The notes under the pieces were generated by a model. It was given only the letters and a program-made list of their open reading frames with translations, was not told the origin of the DNA and made no database searches. From Promethearchaeota archaeon (lineage in GTDB: Archaea; Asgardarchaeota; Lokiarchaeia; Sigyniarchaeales; SOKP01), in assembly GCA_048939015.1 (NCBI GenBank), contig JBHLPW010000007.1:1-64000 (forward strand): a stretch of DNA of 64,000 nucleotides, in the 5' to 3' direction. Below are positions 48,581-63,999 of this stretch, one piece after another. Made by a program: the position numbers and the translations under genes. Position 1 is the first letter of the stretch. Each line of letters opens with the position of its first letter.

Positions 48581-49669
48581 TTATTTTTGATTTTTTAAAT
48601 ATTCATGCATCTCGACTAAAGTACTTGTTCTTATTAGAGCAGCTTTAAGAAATTGGAATCCTATATCGTAAGTTGATCCATCTCCTCCAATATGAATAAG
48701 ATATGGCACTTTTCCTTCAAATAAGCCTTTTGCTTTACGTATTTTATAGGCTGTGCTTATCGCATCTGCCACCGTTGCACCAGACTCGAATAAATGATGA
48801 ACCCAGGGAACGCGCCAAGAACTTACATTATCCTTTGAGGTTGAAACCTCTGAACATGATGTATTATTTACATAGATTATATTGTCACCCGCAACTTTAG
48901 TTGCAGCTGTAGCCATTTGATTCAATACCATCCCTGCTCCACATCCAGGGCATAATCCATGACCGGGATGCAAGTGATTTTGTGGTTCTAATTCTTTTCG
49001 ATTGATACGATAAATATCGACAGGTTTCTCTGCTCCAAATTGTTCAATCAATCCTTTTAATTTTCGATTTCTTTGTTCTGTATAATATATTATTTCATCA
49101 ATTTCCTTTTCCATGAATTTTGGTTTAAATAGGTGTCTAAAACGTCCCATTGATTTCAAATATTCAACAAATTTATCTTTATCAATATCTAATCCTCTAT
49201 AATATGAGAAAGTAGGAACTCCATCCTTTACTCGAATTGTATATAATGGCCAATAGCCACAATCAGTTGCTAATTTAGAAATATTAACCGAATCTTCTGC
49301 CGCATGTCTCCAGCCTCTCATACAATCAGAATAGGATTGAAGAAAAGAAGAACCATTTGTTTTTAAGGCTTCCATAACTTTTCCCATAAAATCATTTGGA
49401 TAAGCAGGATTCAATGTTGCTAAAAAAAGTGAATTTGAACCGTAAAAAGCAAAAGGAGTAACCAAATCTTGTTTCACTCCAACTTTTCCAGGTATTTTTT
49501 CTCCAGCGGGTCCAGTTGTAGTAGATGCATGAGGTGGCGTTCCACCACTTTCTTGTATACCAGTATTCATAAATGCCTCATTATCATAATTGAAGAACAA
49601 TACATTAGATTTTCCTTCTTTTGAAAGTAAATCCGCCATTTTTATTATATTCCTTTCTGGTTGTGACAT
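48581..49669 (-). CDS. porB: Pyruvate/2-oxoacid:ferredoxin oxidoreductase beta subunit, circularly permuted
   Basis: All PorB motifs are present, but the canonical C-half (YDNEAFMNTGIQ...SDCMRGW...GRFRHL) precedes the canonical N-half (GHGLCPGCG...NTSC...FE...GGDGSTYDIGFQ). Confidence 0.9.
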   Translation of the reverse strand: MSQPERNIIKMADLLSKEGKSNVLFFNYDNEAFMNTGIQESGGTPPHASTTTGPAGEKIPGKVGVKQDLVTPFAFYGSNSLFLATLNPAYPNDFMGKVMEALKTNGSSFLQSYSDCMRGWRHAAEDSVNISKLATDCGYWPLYTIRVKDGVPTFSYYRGLDIDKDKFVEYLKSMGRFRHLFKPKFMEKEIDEIIYYTEQRNRKLKGLIEQFGAEKPVDIYRINRKELEPQNHLHPGHGLCPGCGAGMVLNQMATAATKVAGDNIIYVNNTSCSEVSTSKDNVSSWRVPWVHHLFESGATVADAISTAYKIRKAKGLFEGKVPYLIHIGGDGSTYDIGFQFLKAALIRTSTLVEMHEYLKNQK

Positions 49670-49670
49670 C

Positions 49671-50900
49671 TTACCTATCTACCCCCAAAATTTTATCTTT
49701 TGATTCTCTTACTCCGAGATAAGAATAGAGTGGTCCCTTCATATCTGTTACAGATTCCATTTTCTTTTTTGCAACATCGAACTCATCCCTCGTAACATCT
49801 CGACCCCCTAAACCTACAATAAAACTTCTGAAGATTGTTCCAAGAGGATAGAGAGCTGAAGCAACTGTCATTGCAAATGGTGGTAAAAGACCATTTAAAG
49901 AATCTGATTTTTCAAATAGAATAAGTTTCTCGATATTATGTTCCTGTATTATTCTTTGTAATTCCTCATAAGGAAATGGCCTATAAGCGCGTATTTTAAT
50001 TAAACCCACATCTTTATTTTTTGTCATCCAACTGATTATATTTCCACACATTGATCCCATTGTAAGAAATGCAGTTTTTGAAGAATTATCAAGATTATAA
50101 GTTTCAATCAAATTGTATTGTCGACTAGTTGAGTTAGCAAATTCTTTAAAACAATTTTTCATTATTCCCAAGACAGGTTTTTTATCTTCTTCTAATCTTC
50201 TTCGACCTTCCATGAAATAATCTGGAGTCACAATTCCGCCCCAAGTTCCTGGATTTTTAGGATTAATATGATGTCTTGGCTTCTTTGGCGTTAACTTTCG
50301 AACTATCTCATCGGGAATGAGTGTTAAGTTCTGTACTGAGTGAGAAATTATGAATCCATCATGTACAAACATTGTTGGAAAGAGTGAGTCTTCTGAAATC
50401 ATAACTGATAATATTGCGGCATCATAAGTCTCTTGTACATTCTCAGAAACGATACAGTTCCACCCTAATTCAGAGTTAGTCTGTACATATTCCCAGCTAT
50501 TCCAGATTGATAAATTAGGAGAATTAAAAGCTCTGGCTGAAATCATCATTGTCAGTGGTACACGCCATCCTACTGCCATTGGTAATGCTTCAGTCATTAG
50601 TAAATAACCTTGTGACGCGGTAGCTGTAAATGTTCTAGCACCAGCAGCACATGCAGCTGTTGAGTAACTTATTGCTGCTAATTCAGATTCAACATTTATA
50701 AATGCTGCTTTTAACCGTCCATGATGAACTACATCAGACAATCCTTCAACTGATTGGGTCTGAGGAGTTATCGGGAATGCACATATAACATCTGGATCAG
50801 TCTGTGTTACGCCCCCTGCTACAGCATAATTTCCAATCATTGTTGTTTCGATTGGTTCTTTAATTTCCTTGAAAAAAATACGCATTGGTTCTACACTCAT
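49671..50900 (-). CDS. porA: Pyruvate/2-oxoacid:ferredoxin oxidoreductase alpha subunit
   Basis: GNYAVA, FPITPQT, ESE..A, RTFTATASQG, DGF..SH, YRPFP, GLGGRD. Confidence 0.92.
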   Translation of the reverse strand: MSVEPMRIFFKEIKEPIETTMIGNYAVAGGVTQTDPDVICAFPITPQTQSVEGLSDVVHHGRLKAAFINVESELAAISYSTAACAAGARTFTATASQGYLLMTEALPMAVGWRVPLTMMISARAFNSPNLSIWNSWEYVQTNSELGWNCIVSENVQETYDAAILSVMISEDSLFPTMFVHDGFIISHSVQNLTLIPDEIVRKLTPKKPRHHINPKNPGTWGGIVTPDYFMEGRRRLEEDKKPVLGIMKNCFKEFANSTSRQYNLIETYNLDNSSKTAFLTMGSMCGNIISWMTKNKDVGLIKIRAYRPFPYEELQRIIQEHNIEKLILFEKSDSLNGLLPPFAMTVASALYPLGTIFRSFIVGLGGRDVTRDEFDVAKKKMESVTDMKGPLYSYLGVRESKDKILGVDR

Positions 50901-50903
50901 TAA

Positions 50904-51902
50904 TTATTCACCTCCTTCCTCCTCAGGTACCGCACAAGATGCAGGTCCTTGTTTTAATTGTTTACTTATAGCTTCAACAGGACAAATATTTAAACAATTT
51001 AGACATGATTTACAATGAAAATTGTCTATTCCCTCCATATGCCATAATCCGTCCTCACCTTTCGCTCGAATTATTGCAAAATCTGGACAAATATACCAGC
51101 ATTGAGCGCAATCGGTACATTTTTCTCTATCCCATATAACTTCCCATTCGCCCCATGTTCCCGTTTGAACCTGAGAACTGCCATAAGGAATAACATCCTC
51201 GTCGCAATACCATACTCCTGCTTTGTCCATTTCTTTAAAGCCGGGCAGTCCAGGTTTAACTTGTTGCCAAGGCACTTTTGTATCTATTGAAAAATCAATA
51301 TCAATTCCAAGATCATATACACATGTTTCTTCTATGGCTTGTTTTATAGCCTCAATGTTTTTTCCTGCAATTGCTCCTTTAAATCTCCTCATAATAGCAT
51401 CAGATAACTCATCCAATGTAAAGATATGTGAAACTCTAATTAATGCACCCAATATTATTGTATTTGTTATATTCCTCCCCAATACTTCCATAGCTATTCG
51501 TGTCGCATCAATTGTAGCTACATTTATGTCCTTTCTTCCTACAATTTCTTGTAAAGATACTTGATCCATAACTGTATTCACAATCAGCCATCCTCCTTTA
51601 GGCATACCAGCGGTAACATTAATTTCTCCTAAAAGAGACGGATCTAATACAGAAACAAAGTGAGGTCCATAAACTTGTTCATTATTTCGTACTAAATCTT
51701 CATTTGATGAAAGTCTGACATAACTTTCAGTTGGAGAACCCATTCTTTCAGCACCAAAGAGAGGTTGACAAACACCATAACCATAAAAAGCTTCTACACA
51801 TAAATTCGAAGCGGTAACTCCACCTTGTCCCCCTCTTGCATGAAATCGAAGGTTAACTACATCATTTTTTAATACTTCTTTAATTTGTTCTGGAGTTAAC
51901 AT
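50904..51902 (-). CDS. porG: Fused 2-oxoacid:ferredoxin oxidoreductase gamma-delta subunit
   Basis: RFHARGGQGGVTA, FGAERMG, NTIILGA, then TGTW and 2x[4Fe-4S] motifs CTDCAQCWYICP and CKSCLNCLNICP. Confidence 0.9.
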   Translation of the reverse strand: MLTPEQIKEVLKNDVVNLRFHARGGQGGVTASNLCVEAFYGYGVCQPLFGAERMGSPTESYVRLSSNEDLVRNNEQVYGPHFVSVLDPSLLGEINVTAGMPKGGWLIVNTVMDQVSLQEIVGRKDINVATIDATRIAMEVLGRNITNTIILGALIRVSHIFTLDELSDAIMRRFKGAIAGKNIEAIKQAIEETCVYDLGIDIDFSIDTKVPWQQVKPGLPGFKEMDKAGVWYCDEDVIPYGSSQVQTGTWGEWEVIWDREKCTDCAQCWYICPDFAIIRAKGEDGLWHMEGIDNFHCKSCLNCLNICPVEAISKQLKQGPASCAVPEEEGGE

Positions 51903-54475: not shown

Positions 54476-56722
54476 CTAGTGGTGATGCCAAAAATGATGC
54501 CAATTTCTAGGATGTGCATTGAAATAATACCAAGCTCCAAATGCATGTTCATATCCCGGTTGGTTAGCAGCCACCATTACAATTGTAGTTTCCCATCGTT
54601 TACCCTTTAAAGTCATAAAGTAATTAGTACCTTCTTGAGTTTCATCACTGAGCCACATAGGAGTTATATAATCCCATGTCCAAAATGGAGTGCCATCCTT
54701 CTTATAATAGGTTGTAGAAGTAATGAATGATACCTTGAAATCATTCCATATGAATCCATCACTCACTTCCCAACCAGCATTTACAACCCAACCATCTGAA
54801 CCGCTCTCAACATCATCAAAGAAACCAATTTCAGTGATTTCAATATCATCAATGTACCAACCTATTTCATTATAGGCTCCATCAGTCCAATATGTAAAGT
54901 ACAACTCGATAGTACGTCCTTCGAATGCTGTTAAATCCATTATCTCTTGATACCAGCCAGGACTAAAACCTGTAAAAGCGTTCCAATTATTTGAAGCATT
55001 GTAGGCATATGGTTCTACATCATCAGGACAATTGATATTATCTTGATCATATAGAAGTATGTCTGTTGTTAATAATCCTGGAAGTGTATACCATGTATCA
55101 GATAAAACATCGTGAATCTCTACATAACCATAGTCCCAATCGGTTTCAATTTCGTAGTAAGTCTGGAACGTTAAAGTAGCTCCCCCTTCAGGAATGGTAA
55201 ATGTCTGACCAAACCTAAACCATGACCATGTTGATCCATCAGAATACCACTCATATGTTCCACTATATGGATATACAGCACCAGCAAAATCATCGCCATC
55301 AAAGCCTATATCAAAGAAGCGTGGTGTATTTGTAAATTCTACATAACTTGCAGTGTAAGGTAATCCACGACCGACTAATATATATTCACCTTCATATGGA
55401 TATTTATCTACAAACCATTCAAAATAACCGGTATCTGGATACCAACTATCCCACAGTTCCATTACATAAGGTATACTTAACCCTTCTGAGTTTTCGGAAG
55501 GAATATCTAATTCAAAATAACCATATCTTCCACAATCTAGTGATGGATCATCAAGATAGTTAGCAATACACCAGTCTTGAAAGATTTGGTCAAATGATCT
55601 TTTGATACCCATGGCATTAAGTGCATTTACCCAACCTTCAATTCCATTCGCCTGATCTTCAACTAGATAAGTTAATAATTCTGCTCCACCATAATGTTCA
55701 TACATATAGAATGTCCATAGGAATGATGCTCCATAATCAGCTAAATAGCCTTCCCAGAGAGTTAATGGAGTATCCCAGAACCATAGTAAATACTCAGAGA
55801 TATGTCCTGGTGAGAATCCATATCCACAAAGCCATTCAGCTAAAGTTGCGCAACCTTCATCAACCCAAGAAAGTTCATCAAAATCTCTGTCATAATGAAT
55901 AAGGTGTTGAAATTCATGGGCAAAAGTTCCTTCATATTCCCAAGCTTTTATACTGAGATAATTGTAATCAAAACCATTATAAGGATCCACCATTGGAGGA
56001 GTTTCACCTTGTCTTCTCCACCACTGGTAAGTATCCATGTGGAAGGCATTCACACCTGCATCAGCAATTCGAGACCAGAAATATCCTTCAATAAATCCGG
56101 TAGGACTGTCACCAAAGTAAAAAAATTCATCTTTAACGTTGAATACCATTATCTGAACTGTACCATCGCCATATGGACCTGGTCGTTCCGCAGGATCATT
56201 ATTATACATACCAAAGTATTCCACATCAGTATCATGAATGTTAGAGTCGAACTCATTTAGGACTTCTAATAGATCCGCTCCAGTAATGTAATCTACATAA
56301 CCTTCTGGTAAATAATAACCACCTGGATAACCTTCATCTGGTAAACCAGTATCAGTCCATGGATAACTAAAAAACCATACATCATCAGGACTATAACCAG
56401 GATCTCCATTATCAACATACCAATCATATAATGGATCTAATGCGACCCATATATTCCCATTGGTACCATTAAAGATATTTTCAAAATAGAGCCATTCTAA
56501 ACCTCCAGTATAATCGTTAATGGTAGGATAATGCCATGGACTATTTGGAGGTTCAATTTCATCTTCTAGTGTTAGAATATTAGTATATTTGCTATCATAG
56601 ATAGGTTCTATATCAAAAGGAGTTGTAGGTTCAACACTTCCAGTCGCAAAATTTATAACTGAAAAAGTGGTAATACTTAAAAAGGCGAAGACTACTAGTA
56701 TGGTGATAAGTTTTTTTCTCAT
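54476..56722 (-). CDS. Secreted zinc metalloprotease (M30 / immune-inhibitor-A-like) with His/Trp-rich C-terminus
   Basis: Signal peptide; AHEFQHLIH...WVDEG; InhA-like C-terminal domain (YEIETDWDYGYVE, FTYWTDG, GWYIDDI); ends NWHHFWHHH. Confidence 0.85.
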   Translation of the reverse strand: MRKKLITILVVFAFLSITTFSVINFATGSVEPTTPFDIEPIYDSKYTNILTLEDEIEPPNSPWHYPTINDYTGGLEWLYFENIFNGTNGNIWVALDPLYDWYVDNGDPGYSPDDVWFFSYPWTDTGLPDEGYPGGYYLPEGYVDYITGADLLEVLNEFDSNIHDTDVEYFGMYNNDPAERPGPYGDGTVQIMVFNVKDEFFYFGDSPTGFIEGYFWSRIADAGVNAFHMDTYQWWRRQGETPPMVDPYNGFDYNYLSIKAWEYEGTFAHEFQHLIHYDRDFDELSWVDEGCATLAEWLCGYGFSPGHISEYLLWFWDTPLTLWEGYLADYGASFLWTFYMYEHYGGAELLTYLVEDQANGIEGWVNALNAMGIKRSFDQIFQDWCIANYLDDPSLDCGRYGYFELDIPSENSEGLSIPYVMELWDSWYPDTGYFEWFVDKYPYEGEYILVGRGLPYTASYVEFTNTPRFFDIGFDGDDFAGAVYPYSGTYEWYSDGSTWSWFRFGQTFTIPEGGATLTFQTYYEIETDWDYGYVEIHDVLSDTWYTLPGLLTTDILLYDQDNINCPDDVEPYAYNASNNWNAFTGFSPGWYQEIMDLTAFEGRTIELYFTYWTDGAYNEIGWYIDDIEITEIGFFDDVESGSDGWVVNAGWEVSDGFIWNDFKVSFITSTTYYKKDGTPFWTWDYITPMWLSDETQEGTNYFMTLKGKRWETTIVMVAANQPGYEHAFGAWYYFNAHPRNWHHFWHHH

Positions 56723-57444: not shown

Positions 57445-58935
57445 TTAACATCTGCAGTGTGGTCCATGGTGATGGTGATGCCAATGCCAATAATGCCAAT
57501 AAAGGTAGGCAAACATCATGGCTCTGTCTGCTCGTAGGAAACCCGCTCCAAAATCATCGTCCTCCCATACAAATTCCCATGGATAATATGAAAATCCCCA
57601 ATAATAACTTGATAAATAGTCATAAATTGGATCATAAACATACGCGAGATTGTAATCTTCTTCACCAGGATAGCTGTCGAAATCCATGGGAAGGGTTGAA
57701 GCAGCAGCTTTCAAGATTGTTTCCATTTGCCATTGATTTAAATATGGAAATCTTTGTAATATTAAGGCAGCTATACCAGATACATGAGGACATGCTTGAC
57801 TTGTACCCCATACATAGTAATATCCAAAATAATCCTCAAAATCGGCAAATTCTGGTTTGTAAGGTCCCACAATACACGCTCCAGGGGTACAGACATCAAG
57901 TTCTTGTTCACCCAATGGATGATCAAAAATTGGTCGGGAACTAAAATCCTCAAGATAAACTTGCCACTCATTACCCCAAACATCAGTATTATGTAAATTT
58001 TCAGGAACATCATTTAACCAAAATTCTCTATTAGACCAACCGATAGCTTCTCCTGTACTACTTGAATAATCGTGATCTACAACAGGAACCCATTGTTCTG
58101 TCCAACCAGCAGCACCTACGGATATTACTTCAGGATATGCTCCTGGCCAACCCATCCCATCTTCACCTGAATTACCTGCTGATGCTATAACAATTACTCC
58201 TTCGCTTATAGCATAATCTATTGCATCTTTTATTATTGGTGCTGGTTCCGGCCCTCCTAAACTCATACTTATAATAACAGGACCATGTAAGTAATGTGCT
58301 ATATCCGCAATATAATTAATACCCGCAGCAACCATTGGATCAGTACCACCTGAAAGAAATTGATAATCTTCAGGAGCATCTGGCACATACCAATTATCAA
58401 GTACCAATACAGGAATTATTTTAACGTTTGGCGCTACTCCTCTAACCCAGAATTTCCCTGCTGAACCATCATAAAGATATCCAGTAATAGTACTTGTTAC
58501 ATGAGTTCCATGACCATCTCCTTTCCAATCATCAACTTCAAAACCTCTTTCTATAAGAGGTCCAAAAGTGTAATCTTCTGCTATTGGATCCCATCCAACT
58601 TCATGTGTAAAACCTTTTCCAAGTTTCCATTTAATATTTCCCTGAGGTAAAATATCTCGCCAATTACTCAATAACCCTGTATCTAATACAGCAATATAAA
58701 CACCAGTTCCTTTTGACCATACTTTATCAGCATCTACCATGTCAACTGAAAAAGGAACCTTCCCTCTACCGCTACCAAAATTTGTTCCAACTCCACAATA
58801 AGGAGATTGCATTTCTGCTTTTAAAAAACCAGTATTATTTCCTATTGATGTCTTTGATGCAAATACAACAGGAATGAAAGCAGGTATCATTGAAAATAGG
58901 AGTATTCCAATGAGGATATAAGTTCTTTTTTTCAC
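57445..58935 (-). CDS. Secreted S8 subtilisin-like serine protease with His/Trp-rich C-terminus
   Basis: Signal peptide; VLDTG, HGTHV, ASAGNSG, GTSQACPHV; ends YWHYWHWHHHHHGPHCRC. Confidence 0.92.
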   Translation of the reverse strand: MKKRTYILIGILLFSMIPAFIPVVFASKTSIGNNTGFLKAEMQSPYCGVGTNFGSGRGKVPFSVDMVDADKVWSKGTGVYIAVLDTGLLSNWRDILPQGNIKWKLGKGFTHEVGWDPIAEDYTFGPLIERGFEVDDWKGDGHGTHVTSTITGYLYDGSAGKFWVRGVAPNVKIIPVLVLDNWYVPDAPEDYQFLSGGTDPMVAAGINYIADIAHYLHGPVIISMSLGGPEPAPIIKDAIDYAISEGVIVIASAGNSGEDGMGWPGAYPEVISVGAAGWTEQWVPVVDHDYSSSTGEAIGWSNREFWLNDVPENLHNTDVWGNEWQVYLEDFSSRPIFDHPLGEQELDVCTPGACIVGPYKPEFADFEDYFGYYYVWGTSQACPHVSGIAALILQRFPYLNQWQMETILKAAASTLPMDFDSYPGEEDYNLAYVYDPIYDYLSSYYWGFSYYPWEFVWEDDDFGAGFLRADRAMMFAYLYWHYWHWHHHHHGPHCRC

Positions 58936-60812: not shown

Positions 60813-63185
60813 CTATTTTAAAGCTAGTTTACTTACTTGAGAGACTATATCAGCAAATCTTTTACCTTCTGCTGCAGAAATCCATTCAATGATAAATCTT
60901 TCATCAGAAATATTATTTTTTTTCATCCAACTTCTAATTCTTTTTTCTCGCTTTATCGCAAAATCATTTCCAGAAATATAATGACAATCTTGTGGATGAC
61001 ATCCAGTCAACATTACAGCTCCAGCTCCATGGTTAAAACAATGTTTAATAAAGGAAATCTTTACTCGTCCTGAACACATAGTTCTAACAATTCTGGTATT
61101 AGTTGGATACTGGACACGACTTGTTCCTGCTAAGTCTGCACCTGCATATGAACACCAGTTGCAAGCAAAGATTAATACTTTTTCAGAAGGATTATCGCGA
61201 AGAGCTATATCAATCTGTCTAAGGATCATTGCGTCTGTAAAATTAGTCATAGTTATTGCATCTGTGGGACAATCTGCTGCACAGGTACCACAACCCTTAC
61301 ATAAAACAGGAACAATTCGTGCTGGGGTTTTCTTTTCTCGATCAACACTGATTGCACCGTAAGGACAACGAGATTCACAAGTTCCACAACTTGTACATTT
61401 ATTTGTATCTACAAAGGCATATAATGGTTCTACATGGAATTCATCTTCAAAAAGCAAATTTCCACAACGACCTGCTGCAGCACTAGCTTGAGTAACTGTT
61501 TCTCTGATATCTTTTGGTGATTCAGCACCACCAGCAATAAAAATACCATCAGTTGGAGTATCCACTGGACGAAGTTTAGGATGAGCTTCAATATAAAATC
61601 CTTTTGGATCCTTAGCAATAGGAAAAGGAATAGATTCAGATGAACCTTCTACTCCTATAGAAAGGACTACTAAGTCAAATTCTTCAGTTAAAATTGTCCC
61701 TGTGCTTATATTTTCAACAGTTACATTGAGATTTTTGGTTATAGGATTCTCTTTAATTTGACCTGGCCGTCCACGTATAAAAAGAACACCCTCTTCTCTT
61801 GAACGTGAATATAATTCTTCAAATCCTTTCCCAAAAGCCCTAATATCAATAAAAAATATTGTAACCTCAACGTCAGGCCAGTGTTCTTTAATCAAAAGAC
61901 TGTCTTTTATACTTTCCATACAACAAAAATTAGAACAATATGGATTAAATCGTTTATCACGAGATCCTACACAATTAATAAAAGCAACTTTTTTTGGCTT
62001 CCTAAGATCACTAGGACGTACGAGTTCTCCATTTGTTGGTCCTGAAGCATTGATTAACCTTTCAAACTCAAAAGTCGTTATTACATTTGTATAATTACCC
62101 CACCCATATTCTGGGAGTTTAGAGGCATCAAAAAGTTCAAAACCCACAGCGATTATTATCGCTCCAACTTGATATTTAAAAATTTTTTCAGAATCCTCAT
62201 AATTTATGGCTTCTTTTTCACATTCAGGAACACATTTTCCACATGCTAAAGGTGAAAGGCCTAAACAGGCTTTCTCATCAATTATATAGCAAGCTGGTAC
62301 TGCTTGAGGATATGGGATATATATTGCTTTCCTCCAACCTAAATTGCCAGAATATTCATCAACAACGTTTTCAGGGCAGATTGAGACGCAATCTCCACAT
62401 GCTGTACATAGATTTTCGTCTACATATCGTGGATATTTTTTGATTGTTACCTCAAAATTACCAATATATCCAGATATGCTTGTAACTTCTGCACAAGAAA
62501 TTAAATTAATATTATCATGGATACCTACATCTGCCATTTTGGGACCTAAAATACAAATTGAACAATCCATTGTTGGAAAAGTCTTATCTATGAGAGCCAT
62601 CTTTCCCCCAATAGTGGGTGATTTTTCAACAAGAATAACTTCATACTCATCAGCTAAATCTAAAGCAGCTTGAATCCCTGCTACACCTCCACCAATTATT
62701 AAGACTCTTTTTGTAATAGGAACAACGATATCATCAATTGCTTCTAATAATTCCGCTTTAGCAATAGCCATTTCAAGAATTTCTTTTGCTTTTTTGGTTG
62801 CTTCTTCTTTTTCTGAGAGATGTACCCAACTACACTGTTCTCGTATATTAGCAACTTCTACTAGTGAAGGATTTATTCCAACTCGTCTTAACAGCTTTTT
62901 CCATGTTGGTCCATGCAACCTAGGGGAACATGCTGCAACAACTATCTTCTCTATGCCTTGCTCTTTTATTGCGGTTTCAATTTCTACTTGCCCAGGATCC
63001 GAACAAGTATATGTATTGACTTGAACTAATTTAACTCTTGTATCTTCTTCAATTTCCTTAGCTATTTGATCAATATCAACTGTTCCACCAATATTTTTTC
63101 CGCATTTGCATAGAAATACTCCGATATTAGGTTCAATTTCAGGTTTGTTATCACTTTCAGTCATACTTTCAATCACTTTCTTCAT
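60813..63185 (-). CDS. hdrA: HdrA-MvhD fusion (heterodisulfide reductase A-like flavoprotein plus hydrogenase delta domain)
   Basis: C.CG.NI, AACSPR.H, NIREQCSWVH, GGGVAG, KTFPTMDCSICI, CVGSRD, CSNFCC, ferredoxin motifs. C-terminal CNWCSYAGAD, MCSGR, GCHPQDCHY, WISAAEG (MvhD). Confidence 0.93.
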   Translation of the reverse strand: MKKVIESMTESDNKPEIEPNIGVFLCKCGKNIGGTVDIDQIAKEIEEDTRVKLVQVNTYTCSDPGQVEIETAIKEQGIEKIVVAACSPRLHGPTWKKLLRRVGINPSLVEVANIREQCSWVHLSEKEEATKKAKEILEMAIAKAELLEAIDDIVVPITKRVLIIGGGVAGIQAALDLADEYEVILVEKSPTIGGKMALIDKTFPTMDCSICILGPKMADVGIHDNINLISCAEVTSISGYIGNFEVTIKKYPRYVDENLCTACGDCVSICPENVVDEYSGNLGWRKAIYIPYPQAVPACYIIDEKACLGLSPLACGKCVPECEKEAINYEDSEKIFKYQVGAIIIAVGFELFDASKLPEYGWGNYTNVITTFEFERLINASGPTNGELVRPSDLRKPKKVAFINCVGSRDKRFNPYCSNFCCMESIKDSLLIKEHWPDVEVTIFFIDIRAFGKGFEELYSRSREEGVLFIRGRPGQIKENPITKNLNVTVENISTGTILTEEFDLVVLSIGVEGSSESIPFPIAKDPKGFYIEAHPKLRPVDTPTDGIFIAGGAESPKDIRETVTQASAAAGRCGNLLFEDEFHVEPLYAFVDTNKCTSCGTCESRCPYGAISVDREKKTPARIVPVLCKGCGTCAADCPTDAITMTNFTDAMILRQIDIALRDNPSEKVLIFACNWCSYAGADLAGTSRVQYPTNTRIVRTMCSGRVKISFIKHCFNHGAGAVMLTGCHPQDCHYISGNDFAIKREKRIRSWMKKNNISDERFIIEWISAAEGKRFADIVSQVSKLALK

Positions 63186-63999
63186 TTTCTCTTAAAATTT
63201 TCTTACTTTGGGCATTTGTTCGAACTTGTTCTATTTTTTTGCTGAATCCTTCCCGTTCCTCTTCAACGAATTCTCCGCATATAATAATCCCTTTCTTGAA
63301 ATCAAAAGTTGCTTGATGAGGGGGCCAATCAAGTTTAATTCTAATTTGCTTTTTTAACCAATCTAGCATCTCAACAGCATCACCTAATTTATTTTTAGCT
63401 CCATATTGAACGAAACAAGGAGCAAGAACTTCTATAAAACTGAATCCTTGATTGTCTAGACATTTAAAAATACTTTTTTGTAATCTAAGAGTGTCGTATC
63501 CCGGCCATCTAGCAACATATGTTGCTCCCGCAGCAGCAGCAAGACTTACCAAATTGAAGGGTGGTTCTACATTTCCATATGGAGTTGTTGCAGTAATATC
63601 GCCAATCTGACTTGTAGGGGCTACTTGACCTCCAGTCATGCCATATATATTGTTATTTATACAAAGTACAGTTAATTCTACATTTCTTCTAGCAGCGTGA
63701 ATAAAATGATTGCCACCAATAGCGAAAAGGTCTCCATCTCCTGATAAGACTATAACTTTTAATTTAGGATTTGCTAATTTTATACCTGTTGCAAAAGGTA
63801 TAGCTCTTCCATGTGTAGTATGGAAAGCAGGGGCTTTAAAGCAGCCACTAGATCGACCAGTACATCCTATACCAGATACAATAGCATAATCCTTAGATGT
63901 AAGTCCACTTTCTTTTAAACAGTTTGTAATGGAAGTAATTACAGTTCCAATTAAACAACCAGGACAAAAAATAAATCTGTTTAAATTTAACATATCCAT
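63169..63999 (-). CDS. korB: 2-oxoacid:ferredoxin oxidoreductase beta subunit (KorB-type, canonical order)
   Basis: FCPGC, SGIGC, HGRA, GDGD...NNNIYGMTGGQ, APC. The start is at the window edge. Confidence 0.92.
   Translation of the reverse strand: MDMLNLNRFIFCPGCLIGTVITSITNCLKESGLTSKDYAIVSGIGCTGRSSGCFKAPAFHTTHGRAIPFATGIKLANPKLKVIVLSGDGDLFAIGGNHFIHAARRNVELTVLCINNNIYGMTGGQVAPTSQIGDITATTPYGNVEPPFNLVSLAAAAGATYVARWPGYDTLRLQKSIFKCLDNQGFSFIEVLAPCFVQYGAKNKLGDAVEMLDWLKKQIRIKLDWPPHQATFDFKKGIIICGEFVEEEREGFSKKIEQVRTNAQSKKILRENEESD

Follow-up and report, generated by a model that had tools for sequence, protein, structure and literature searches.

Domain VI is the presumed invariant core of the 2-oxoacid:ferredoxin oxidoreductases (OFORs); enzymes that use thiamine diphosphate (ThDP) bear the GDG...N motif as their signature. 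This beta-alpha-beta motif carries GDG at the C-terminal end of its first strand and the Mg-binding Asp or Asn at that of its second; the intervening helix returns between the strands, so that the loop leading from the helix to the second strand lies at the far edge of the sheet. Natural circular permutants occur in DNA methyltransferases, glucanases, and transaldolase-like enzymes, with duplication followed by deletion as the usual proposed route; to our knowledge, none is known within a ThDP-binding domain or the OFOR family. The standard OFOR mechanism comprises ylide addition, decarboxylation, formation of an HE-ThDP radical, acylation of CoA, and the exit of electrons through three clusters, and most four-subunit PFORs share the gamma-delta-alpha-beta gene order that is also found at the locus reported here (PMC13768988). 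A November 2026 review of PFOR diversity is concerned only with whole-domain fusions and re-orderings, and leaves permutation, Asgard, and Loki unmentioned. A literature search by title and abstract, outside subscription papers, returned no relevant paper describing a PorB permutation, which is apparently unpublished; circular permutation itself is a known phenomenon, seen in many other protein families.

Among the closest described systems, PorB of M. acetivorans (chain C of 9bt4; profile NF008819) is homologous to both halves of the protein reported here and shares its CxxC, Cys, and Cys ligands, GDG, and YDNE...NTG, but in the present protein the halves are swapped, a 24-aa linker joins them, and new extensions of 21 and 15 aa form the termini. 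Relative to the four-subunit archaeal PFOR, the system also differs in its fused gamma and delta subunits, its identity of about 40%, and a score below the equivalog cut-off. The oxalate oxidoreductase (OOR) of Moorella thermoacetica has the same three-subunit layout with a gamma-delta fusion, and its beta subunit (5c4i, 5exd, and 5exe; NF045792) has the same fold (VIA Z 10, rmsd 3.4, 167 aligned). However, OOR beta is collinear, the alpha subunit of the present system carries PITP rather than the OOR Arg, and oxalate use is without support. Domain VI of the single-chain PFORs (D. africanus, 1b0p and 2c3y; M. thermoacetica, 6cin) likewise has the same fold (VIA Z 11.8, rmsd 3.0, 167 aligned), with the cluster cysteines in register, but it is contiguous in all described PFORs.

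The window (the whole stretch of DNA analysed, 64,000 nucleotides) comes from a Lokiarchaeia genome and holds, on the minus strand at 48581-49669, one unbroken ORF of 362 aa, whereas the plus strand over the same interval has many stops. The features of this ORF and of its operon partners are as follows.

50904..51902, minus strand: porG-porD (gamma-delta) fusion, 332 aa, with two 4Fe-4S motifs
49671..50900, minus strand: porA, alpha subunit, 409 aa, with FPITP (T45), E73, and R123
48581..49669, minus strand: permuted porB, circularly permuted OFOR beta subunit, 362 aa (ORF; PDB and HMM matches)
49607..49669, minus strand: new N-terminal extension, aa 1-21, with strand 6-10 and helix 11-16 in the model; probable second canonical N-terminal segment; dN/dS 0.21
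49058..49606, minus strand: canonical C-terminal half, now leading, aa 22-204, with the last strand of the ThDP motif, YDNE, NTG, and Cys116
49559..49588, minus strand: Y28-D29-N30-E31...N35-T36-G37, second half of the ThDP/Mg motif and substrate-contacting Asn; aligns with the NTG of D. africanus PFOR
49322..49324, minus strand: Cys116, fourth ligand of the proximal [4Fe-4S] cluster; aligns with the cysteine of PFOR YATC; invariant in 201/201
48986..49057, minus strand: linker, aa 205-228, from the old C-terminus to the old N-terminus; dN/dS 0.09
48629..48985, minus strand: canonical N-terminal half, now trailing, aa 229-347, with CxxC, NTSC, the alpha-binding helix, and the GDG strand and helix
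48941..48952, minus strand: Cys240-x-x-Cys243, cluster ligands 1 and 2; invariant in 201/201
48854-48856, minus strand: Cys272, cluster ligand 3; invariant in 201/201
48677..48685, minus strand: G329-D330-G331, first half of the ThDP/Mg motif; invariant in 201/201
48581..48628, minus strand: new C-terminal extension, aa 348-362, and stop; predicted helix 352-359 and predicted PorA contact; dN/dS 0.07

The original prediction, made from the letters of the DNA alone, was that this ORF encodes a natural circular permutant of PorB, and the residues on which it relied all lie where it placed them: Y28-D29-N30, C116 (SDCMRGW), C240/C243, C272, and GGDGS from G328. In phmmer comparisons with the PDB, aa 23-193 correspond to residues 119-282 of 9bt4_C (E 8e-27) and aa 228-347 to residues 5-115 (E 8e-18), matches that cover both parts of the beta domain, and the swap is also seen against OOR beta (5c4i_C). 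Separate alignment of the halves to a PorB HMM (NCBIfam NF008819), for which swapped coordinates had been expected, gave exactly these: aa 19-198 match profile positions 117-290 (E 9e-37, 127 bits) and aa 224-351 match positions 5-121 (E 3e-25, 89 bits), the two jointly spanning 5-121 and 117-290 of a 300-position profile. No Pfam family was matched by the permuted protein or by either half. KorB at 63169-63999, put forward as a canonical internal control, is indeed collinear and matches Pfam TPP_enzyme_C (E 6e-33). The elements are cyclically re-ordered within a single chain, and the order recurs in independent genomes; the claim of a natural circular permutation stands on these grounds, and the protein is confirmed as an OFOR beta subunit of the PorB type in which the halves have changed places.

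In canonical homologues (n = 109), the positions equivalent to aa 347 and aa 22 are just two residues apart, which places the break in the 'GH' loop (ER-GH-D) leading from the GDG helix to the strand that precedes YDNE, and this two-residue loop is the only sequence unaccounted for at the break. The permuted protein lacks a contiguous GDG-x~25-N motif and an N-terminal CxxC, the motif being divided between the chain ends. The further claim that the break opens within the ThDP-binding motif is accurate for the sequence motif but not for the site, since the cut falls in the loop between the helix and the last strand. That loop sits across the sheet from the diphosphate and Mg contacts, so the cofactor site itself would be spared, as both knowledge of the fold and the secondary structure of the model suggest. 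The chain would fold as an ordinary PFOR domain VI with its old termini bridged by the linker, the N-terminal strand (aa 21-29) packing against the GDG strand and its helix near the C-terminus (aa 323-350), such that D330 and the YDNE segment would jointly bind Mg and ThDP, and C240, C243, and C272 would hold the proximal [4Fe-4S] cluster jointly with C116. An AF2 monomer model, computed without cofactor, forms a single domain (pTM 0.85) in which the ThDP loop at 31-64 has a pLDDT below 50, and its best PDB matches are all PFOR or OOR; Foldseek and VIA are sequential aligners that each take in one half only (TM 0.40), and the reunited site lies outside their reach.

Across the sampled Lokiarchaeia, including Helarchaeales, the swapped order is present in about four-fifths of genomes (130/161) and in all seven sampled families, compared with 1/239 other genomes of the phylum. 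This survey of other Asgard genomes, one of the checks named with the prediction, bears out the idea of a lineage marker: the permutation is a class-wide trait of one origin rather than a peculiarity of the window genome. Exact look-ups located the gene in the single-contig genomes of two cultured strains, Ca. Lokiarchaeum ossiferum (NEF87_002873, UYP46588.1) and Promethearchaeum syntrophicum MK-D1 (DSAG12_00808, QEE14985.1), as well as in Ca. Harpocratesius repetitus (MCF2138868.1) and among Helarchaeota proteins, in all of which NCBI labels it 'hypothetical protein'; the single-contig carriers include G006, G032, G033, G038, and G171. The window MAG has 6.5% contamination, which might raise the suspicion that its two halves were mis-joined in a chimeric assembly. 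However, a match spanning the same junction (51-94% identity) occurs in 129 of the 130 carrier genomes, single-contig and cultured ones among them, and the locus has no repeat elsewhere in the window genome. With some 130 independent assemblies sharing the junction, misassembly is excluded, and the chance of an artefact is negligible.

The sole carrier outside the class (G115, from another Asgard class) was considered as a case of horizontal transfer and rejected: its copy is 81% identical to the query and sits on a 2.8 kb contig in a bin with 8% contamination. That bin also holds a second Loki-like porA on a separate contig besides its own canonical porA copies, and its two Loki-type por contigs (G115:C23, L032; G115:C29) are most likely contamination or misbinning. 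Some NCBI records labelled Thor-, Hod-, Hermod-, or Odinarchaeota carry the permuted gene at 79-87% identity, but those that could be matched by coordinates fall in the query's own family, and the labels are probably loose. In a search of 1.84 billion cluster representatives, the best 150 of 1336 representative matches include two in swapped order, both of the same permuted family, and no independent permutant outside Lokiarchaeia. An apparent fusion of alpha with permuted beta in G262 was traced to a scaffold N-gap, and frameshifting is the apparent cause of the split forms P0333/P0334 and P0122, with porA broken as well in L182.

For tree building, the permuted halves were returned to canonical order and long-branch and redundant rows were left out, giving 63 rows. 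The permuted sequences form one clade under LG+C20 (support 100/100), which each half alone also recovers (SH-aLRT 100); the clade has a long stem, and the tree supports no particular sister group. Altiarchaeales PorB appeared as a candidate donor or sister with a support of 89 in a quick tree, an affinity that was gone under LG+C20. Identity to the nearest canonical Asgard copies is 36% for alpha and 40-41% for the beta halves, whereas those copies are 50-57% identical among themselves. Since alpha is as diverged as beta, the entire operon constitutes a distinct lineage, and the alpha and beta-half identities give no sign of a beta-specific rate acceleration. The permutation appears to have happened once, on the Lokiarchaeia stem.

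The permuted porB belongs to an operon whose order, porG-D, porA, and porB, is nearly always kept in the class. In the window, porA ends at 49671, leaving a single base before the porB start codon, precisely the 1-bp spacing that had been noted, and porA lies immediately upstream in 96/109 locus rows (some loci counted twice), with 9 others at locus edges. Gamma and delta are fused in all complete class operons examined, giving a three-subunit layout comparable to that of OOR. T45 (in PITP), E73, and R123 of alpha are invariant in 24 sequences, and we take them to be the PFOR substrate Thr, the ThDP-activating Glu, and the substrate Arg, respectively. About 20% of class genomes are without the operon. 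Of ten class genomes in which the permuted porB is absent, nine are missing the orthologue of its porA as well, and the remaining one has a porA that stops at a contig edge; no canonical beta was found paired with this type of alpha. The window genome also encodes two canonical PorB-like paralogues in Por-like operons as well as KorB, and essentiality of the permuted gene is therefore not implied.

Some loci depart from this arrangement. In one single-contig genome (G033, 63% complete; L045:4564-5613) the permuted porB is without an adjacent porA and the operon is dispersed. In a second genome, G001 (G001:C172, L048:1630-3120), a canonical beta of 496 aa with an N-terminal extension of about 190 aa lies directly upstream of the Loki porG-D/porA; it was considered as a permutation intermediate and rejected as a separate paralogue on the tree. 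The same genome carries a stray 116-aa C-terminal piece of the permuted porB (G001:C42, L049:2050-2400), 87% identical to the query and some 2.5 kb downstream of the full-length copy; either part of the gene was duplicated recently or the piece is an artefact of binning.

Several lines of evidence point to function. In 201 full-length permuted sequences, 13 cofactor residues are invariant (C116, C240, C243, C272, G329-D330-G331, Y28-D29-N30-E31, N35, and T36), and the four cysteines, said to be retained, do align with those of PFOR and OOR. Against 16 close relatives, in pairs that all share the query and are hence non-independent, dN/dS stands at 0.048 and 0.055 in the two halves, at 0.09 in the linker and 0.07 in the new C-terminus, and reaches 0.21 in the new N-terminus. 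A predicted complex of alpha with the permuted beta, another of the checks named, reached an ipSAE of 0.86 against 0.01 for the best control, with run agreement of at least 95% and partner pLDDT of at least 89, a mark attained by 58/80 solved complexes and 2/110 mismatched pairs; the new C-terminal helix lies within the modelled alpha interface. This score lends support to the pairing but, for so textbook a pair, may reflect resemblance to solved structures rather than binding. In MK-D1, DSAG12_00808-00810 are listed as PFOR with DSAG12_00808 as beta (EC 1.2.7.1; Imachi et al. Table S4, PMC7015854), oxidative 2-oxoacid degradation being one of two routes to ATP from amino acids in that organism, and the swapped order goes unmentioned there (PMC7015854). 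The reported RPKM values are 286 for the permuted porB, 372 for alpha, and 314 for gamma-delta, with flanking hypothetical genes at 150-204 (PMC7015854); as the values are compressed and many genes fall at 150-350, they show transcription and not high expression.

The idea that the gene looks functional holds, given its invariant cofactor residues, purifying selection, operon position, and transcription in MK-D1. We put the probability at roughly 0.85 that the product is a functional, naturally permuted domain VI beta subunit of a pyruvate-type 2-oxoacid:ferredoxin oxidoreductase and thus part of an active OFOR. The enzyme would consist of the permuted beta, alpha, and the gamma-delta fusion, all products of one operon. 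Its substrates would be pyruvate, small aliphatic 2-oxoacids arising in the fermentation of amino acids, or both, which it would decarboxylate oxidatively by the standard OFOR mechanism to give acyl-CoA, CO2, and reduced ferredoxin; the chemistry is probably ordinary and unchanged.

As to origin, a single event of tandem porB duplication followed by trimming is the somewhat favored account. The gene would have been duplicated in tandem and its two copies fused in frame. The first copy would then have lost most of its first half by an internal deletion, retaining only the start with the leading ~15 residues, while the second would have acquired a stop just past the GDG helix. The end of the linker (INRKELEPQNHL) is the true canonical N-terminal segment, and the consensus of the new N-terminus, NIIDxxDLLxRxE, resembles canonical PorB N-termini (xLKELxKEELL). 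In a first profile test the N-extension ranked third in the protein, narrowly outscored by the linker's genuine copy and by a spurious match at aa 22-33; in a wider test it scored roughly as well as the linker copy and exceeded almost all of ~693 background windows, a modest signal (P ~0.02-0.05 after correction) against a background that excluded the aa 22-33 window. Structural alignments, given by their end points only, begin where the domain canonically starts, with model residue 8-10 lying over residue 3 of OOR beta and over 791-794 of PFOR. An alternative view of the N-extension as a remnant of the GDG helix found no support in the profile tests. No C-terminal duplication remnant was detected by profile (z 1.7), and no tandem intermediate was found among longer proteins (top 8000 candidates) or among the best 150 representatives.

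A different origin, in which the permutation was made or fixed by breaking the DNA target of a homing intein in canonical porB, is highly unlikely. Canonical relatives, the Asgard family f13 among them, do carry LAGLIDADG inteins at three ThDP-motif sites (after GDG[GA], before CYDNE, and between YMN and TG); the CYDNE site is 5-6 codons away from the break, its +1 Cys is replaced by Asn, Gly, or Ser in 200/201 permuted sequences, and no permuted copy with an intein was found. However, the break falls between two of these sites and coincides with none, the other two retain their +1 residues (Ser332 and Thr36), and intein motifs are absent by eye from the extensions. One substitution would be a far simpler block on splicing, and the link on the tree to the intein-bearing Altiarchaeales PorB (89) was lost under the mixture model. 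As an observation in its own right, the canonical PorB inteins, many with LAGLIDADG domains, have carriers that include Altiarchaeales and Asgard f13 and lie between GDG[GA] and S/T, between YV and CYDNE, and between YMN and TG (P0125, P0133, P0142, P0152, P0153, and P0271-P0279; L131:4136-6694 and L132:5001-7562; L149, L152, L154, and L155), with two inteins in P0142; a search for PorB inteins by title and abstract, outside subscription papers, returned nothing relevant.

The activity of the permuted enzyme can likewise be read in other ways. That the split motif has left a conserved but catalytically altered protein, with a structural or regulatory role or non-redox ThDP chemistry, is very unlikely: the residue before YDNE, usually Cys or hydrophobic, is now Asn27 in 191/201 sequences and the permuted clade has its long stem branch, but the cluster, Mg, and ThDP residues are all invariant, alpha has diverged equally with no acceleration peculiar to beta, and gamma-delta, which serves CoA and electron transfer, is retained in the operon. 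The identity of the substrate is a closer matter. Pyruvate is the main substrate with moderate likelihood; the archaeal pyruvate synthase is the best HMM for alpha and beta both, EC 1.2.7.1 was assigned by Imachi et al. (PMC7015854), and alpha carries PITP (Thr) and not the OOR Arg. It is possible, if distinctly less probable, that 'pyruvate' is wrong and that an active enzyme prefers 2-oxobutyrate, 2-ketoisovalerate, or other branched chains, or works mainly as a synthase: the C-half scores are near-equal for PorB (127 bits) and VorB (120 bits), Prokka calls the MK-D1 copy VorB, the operon is long-stemmed at 36% (alpha) and 40-41% (beta halves) identity to the nearest canonical Asgard copies, and the window genome has two further Por-like operons. 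Both subunits miss the NCBIfam equivalog cut-offs (PorB 213 < 405 bits; PorA 301 < 550), so the substrate is not fixed by them, and the PorB shortfall is beyond permutation alone, the lineage itself being divergent.

On balance, it is somewhat more likely than not that no natural circular permutation within a ThDP-binding domain was known before this one, and that the locus encodes an active OFOR in which both ends of the chain contribute to the cofactor motif and the proximal cluster. In this reading, a single duplication and deletion left the old N-terminus in two copies, and the result is a rare genomic change uniting Helarchaeales with other Lokiarchaeia. Because an old lineage has fixed the permutant, the ThDP motif probably need not be contiguous, and the break points to a position where a cut is tolerated and PFOR, an enzyme of interest for CO2 fixation, could be split or tagged. 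The permutation also offers a hard-to-reverse, alignment-independent marker of Lokiarchaeia and a check on bin contamination. As the protein falls below Pfam and NCBIfam cut-offs and goes by 'hypothetical protein' in the NCBI records of both cultured strains, this PFOR can be overlooked in metabolic reconstructions that depend on PorB. The enzyme is directly testable in MK-D1 and L. ossiferum.

Elsewhere in the window, an HdrA-MvhD fusion of 790 aa (60813-63185, minus strand) lies immediately downstream of korB (63169-63999), with a 17-base overlap. Two adjacent secreted-looking proteases with His-rich tails (HWHHFWHHH; HWHWHHHHHGPHCRC) are encoded at 54476-56722 and 57445-58935, both on the minus strand, the pair consisting of an InhA-like MAM-domain protein with an HEFQH motif and an S8 subtilase.
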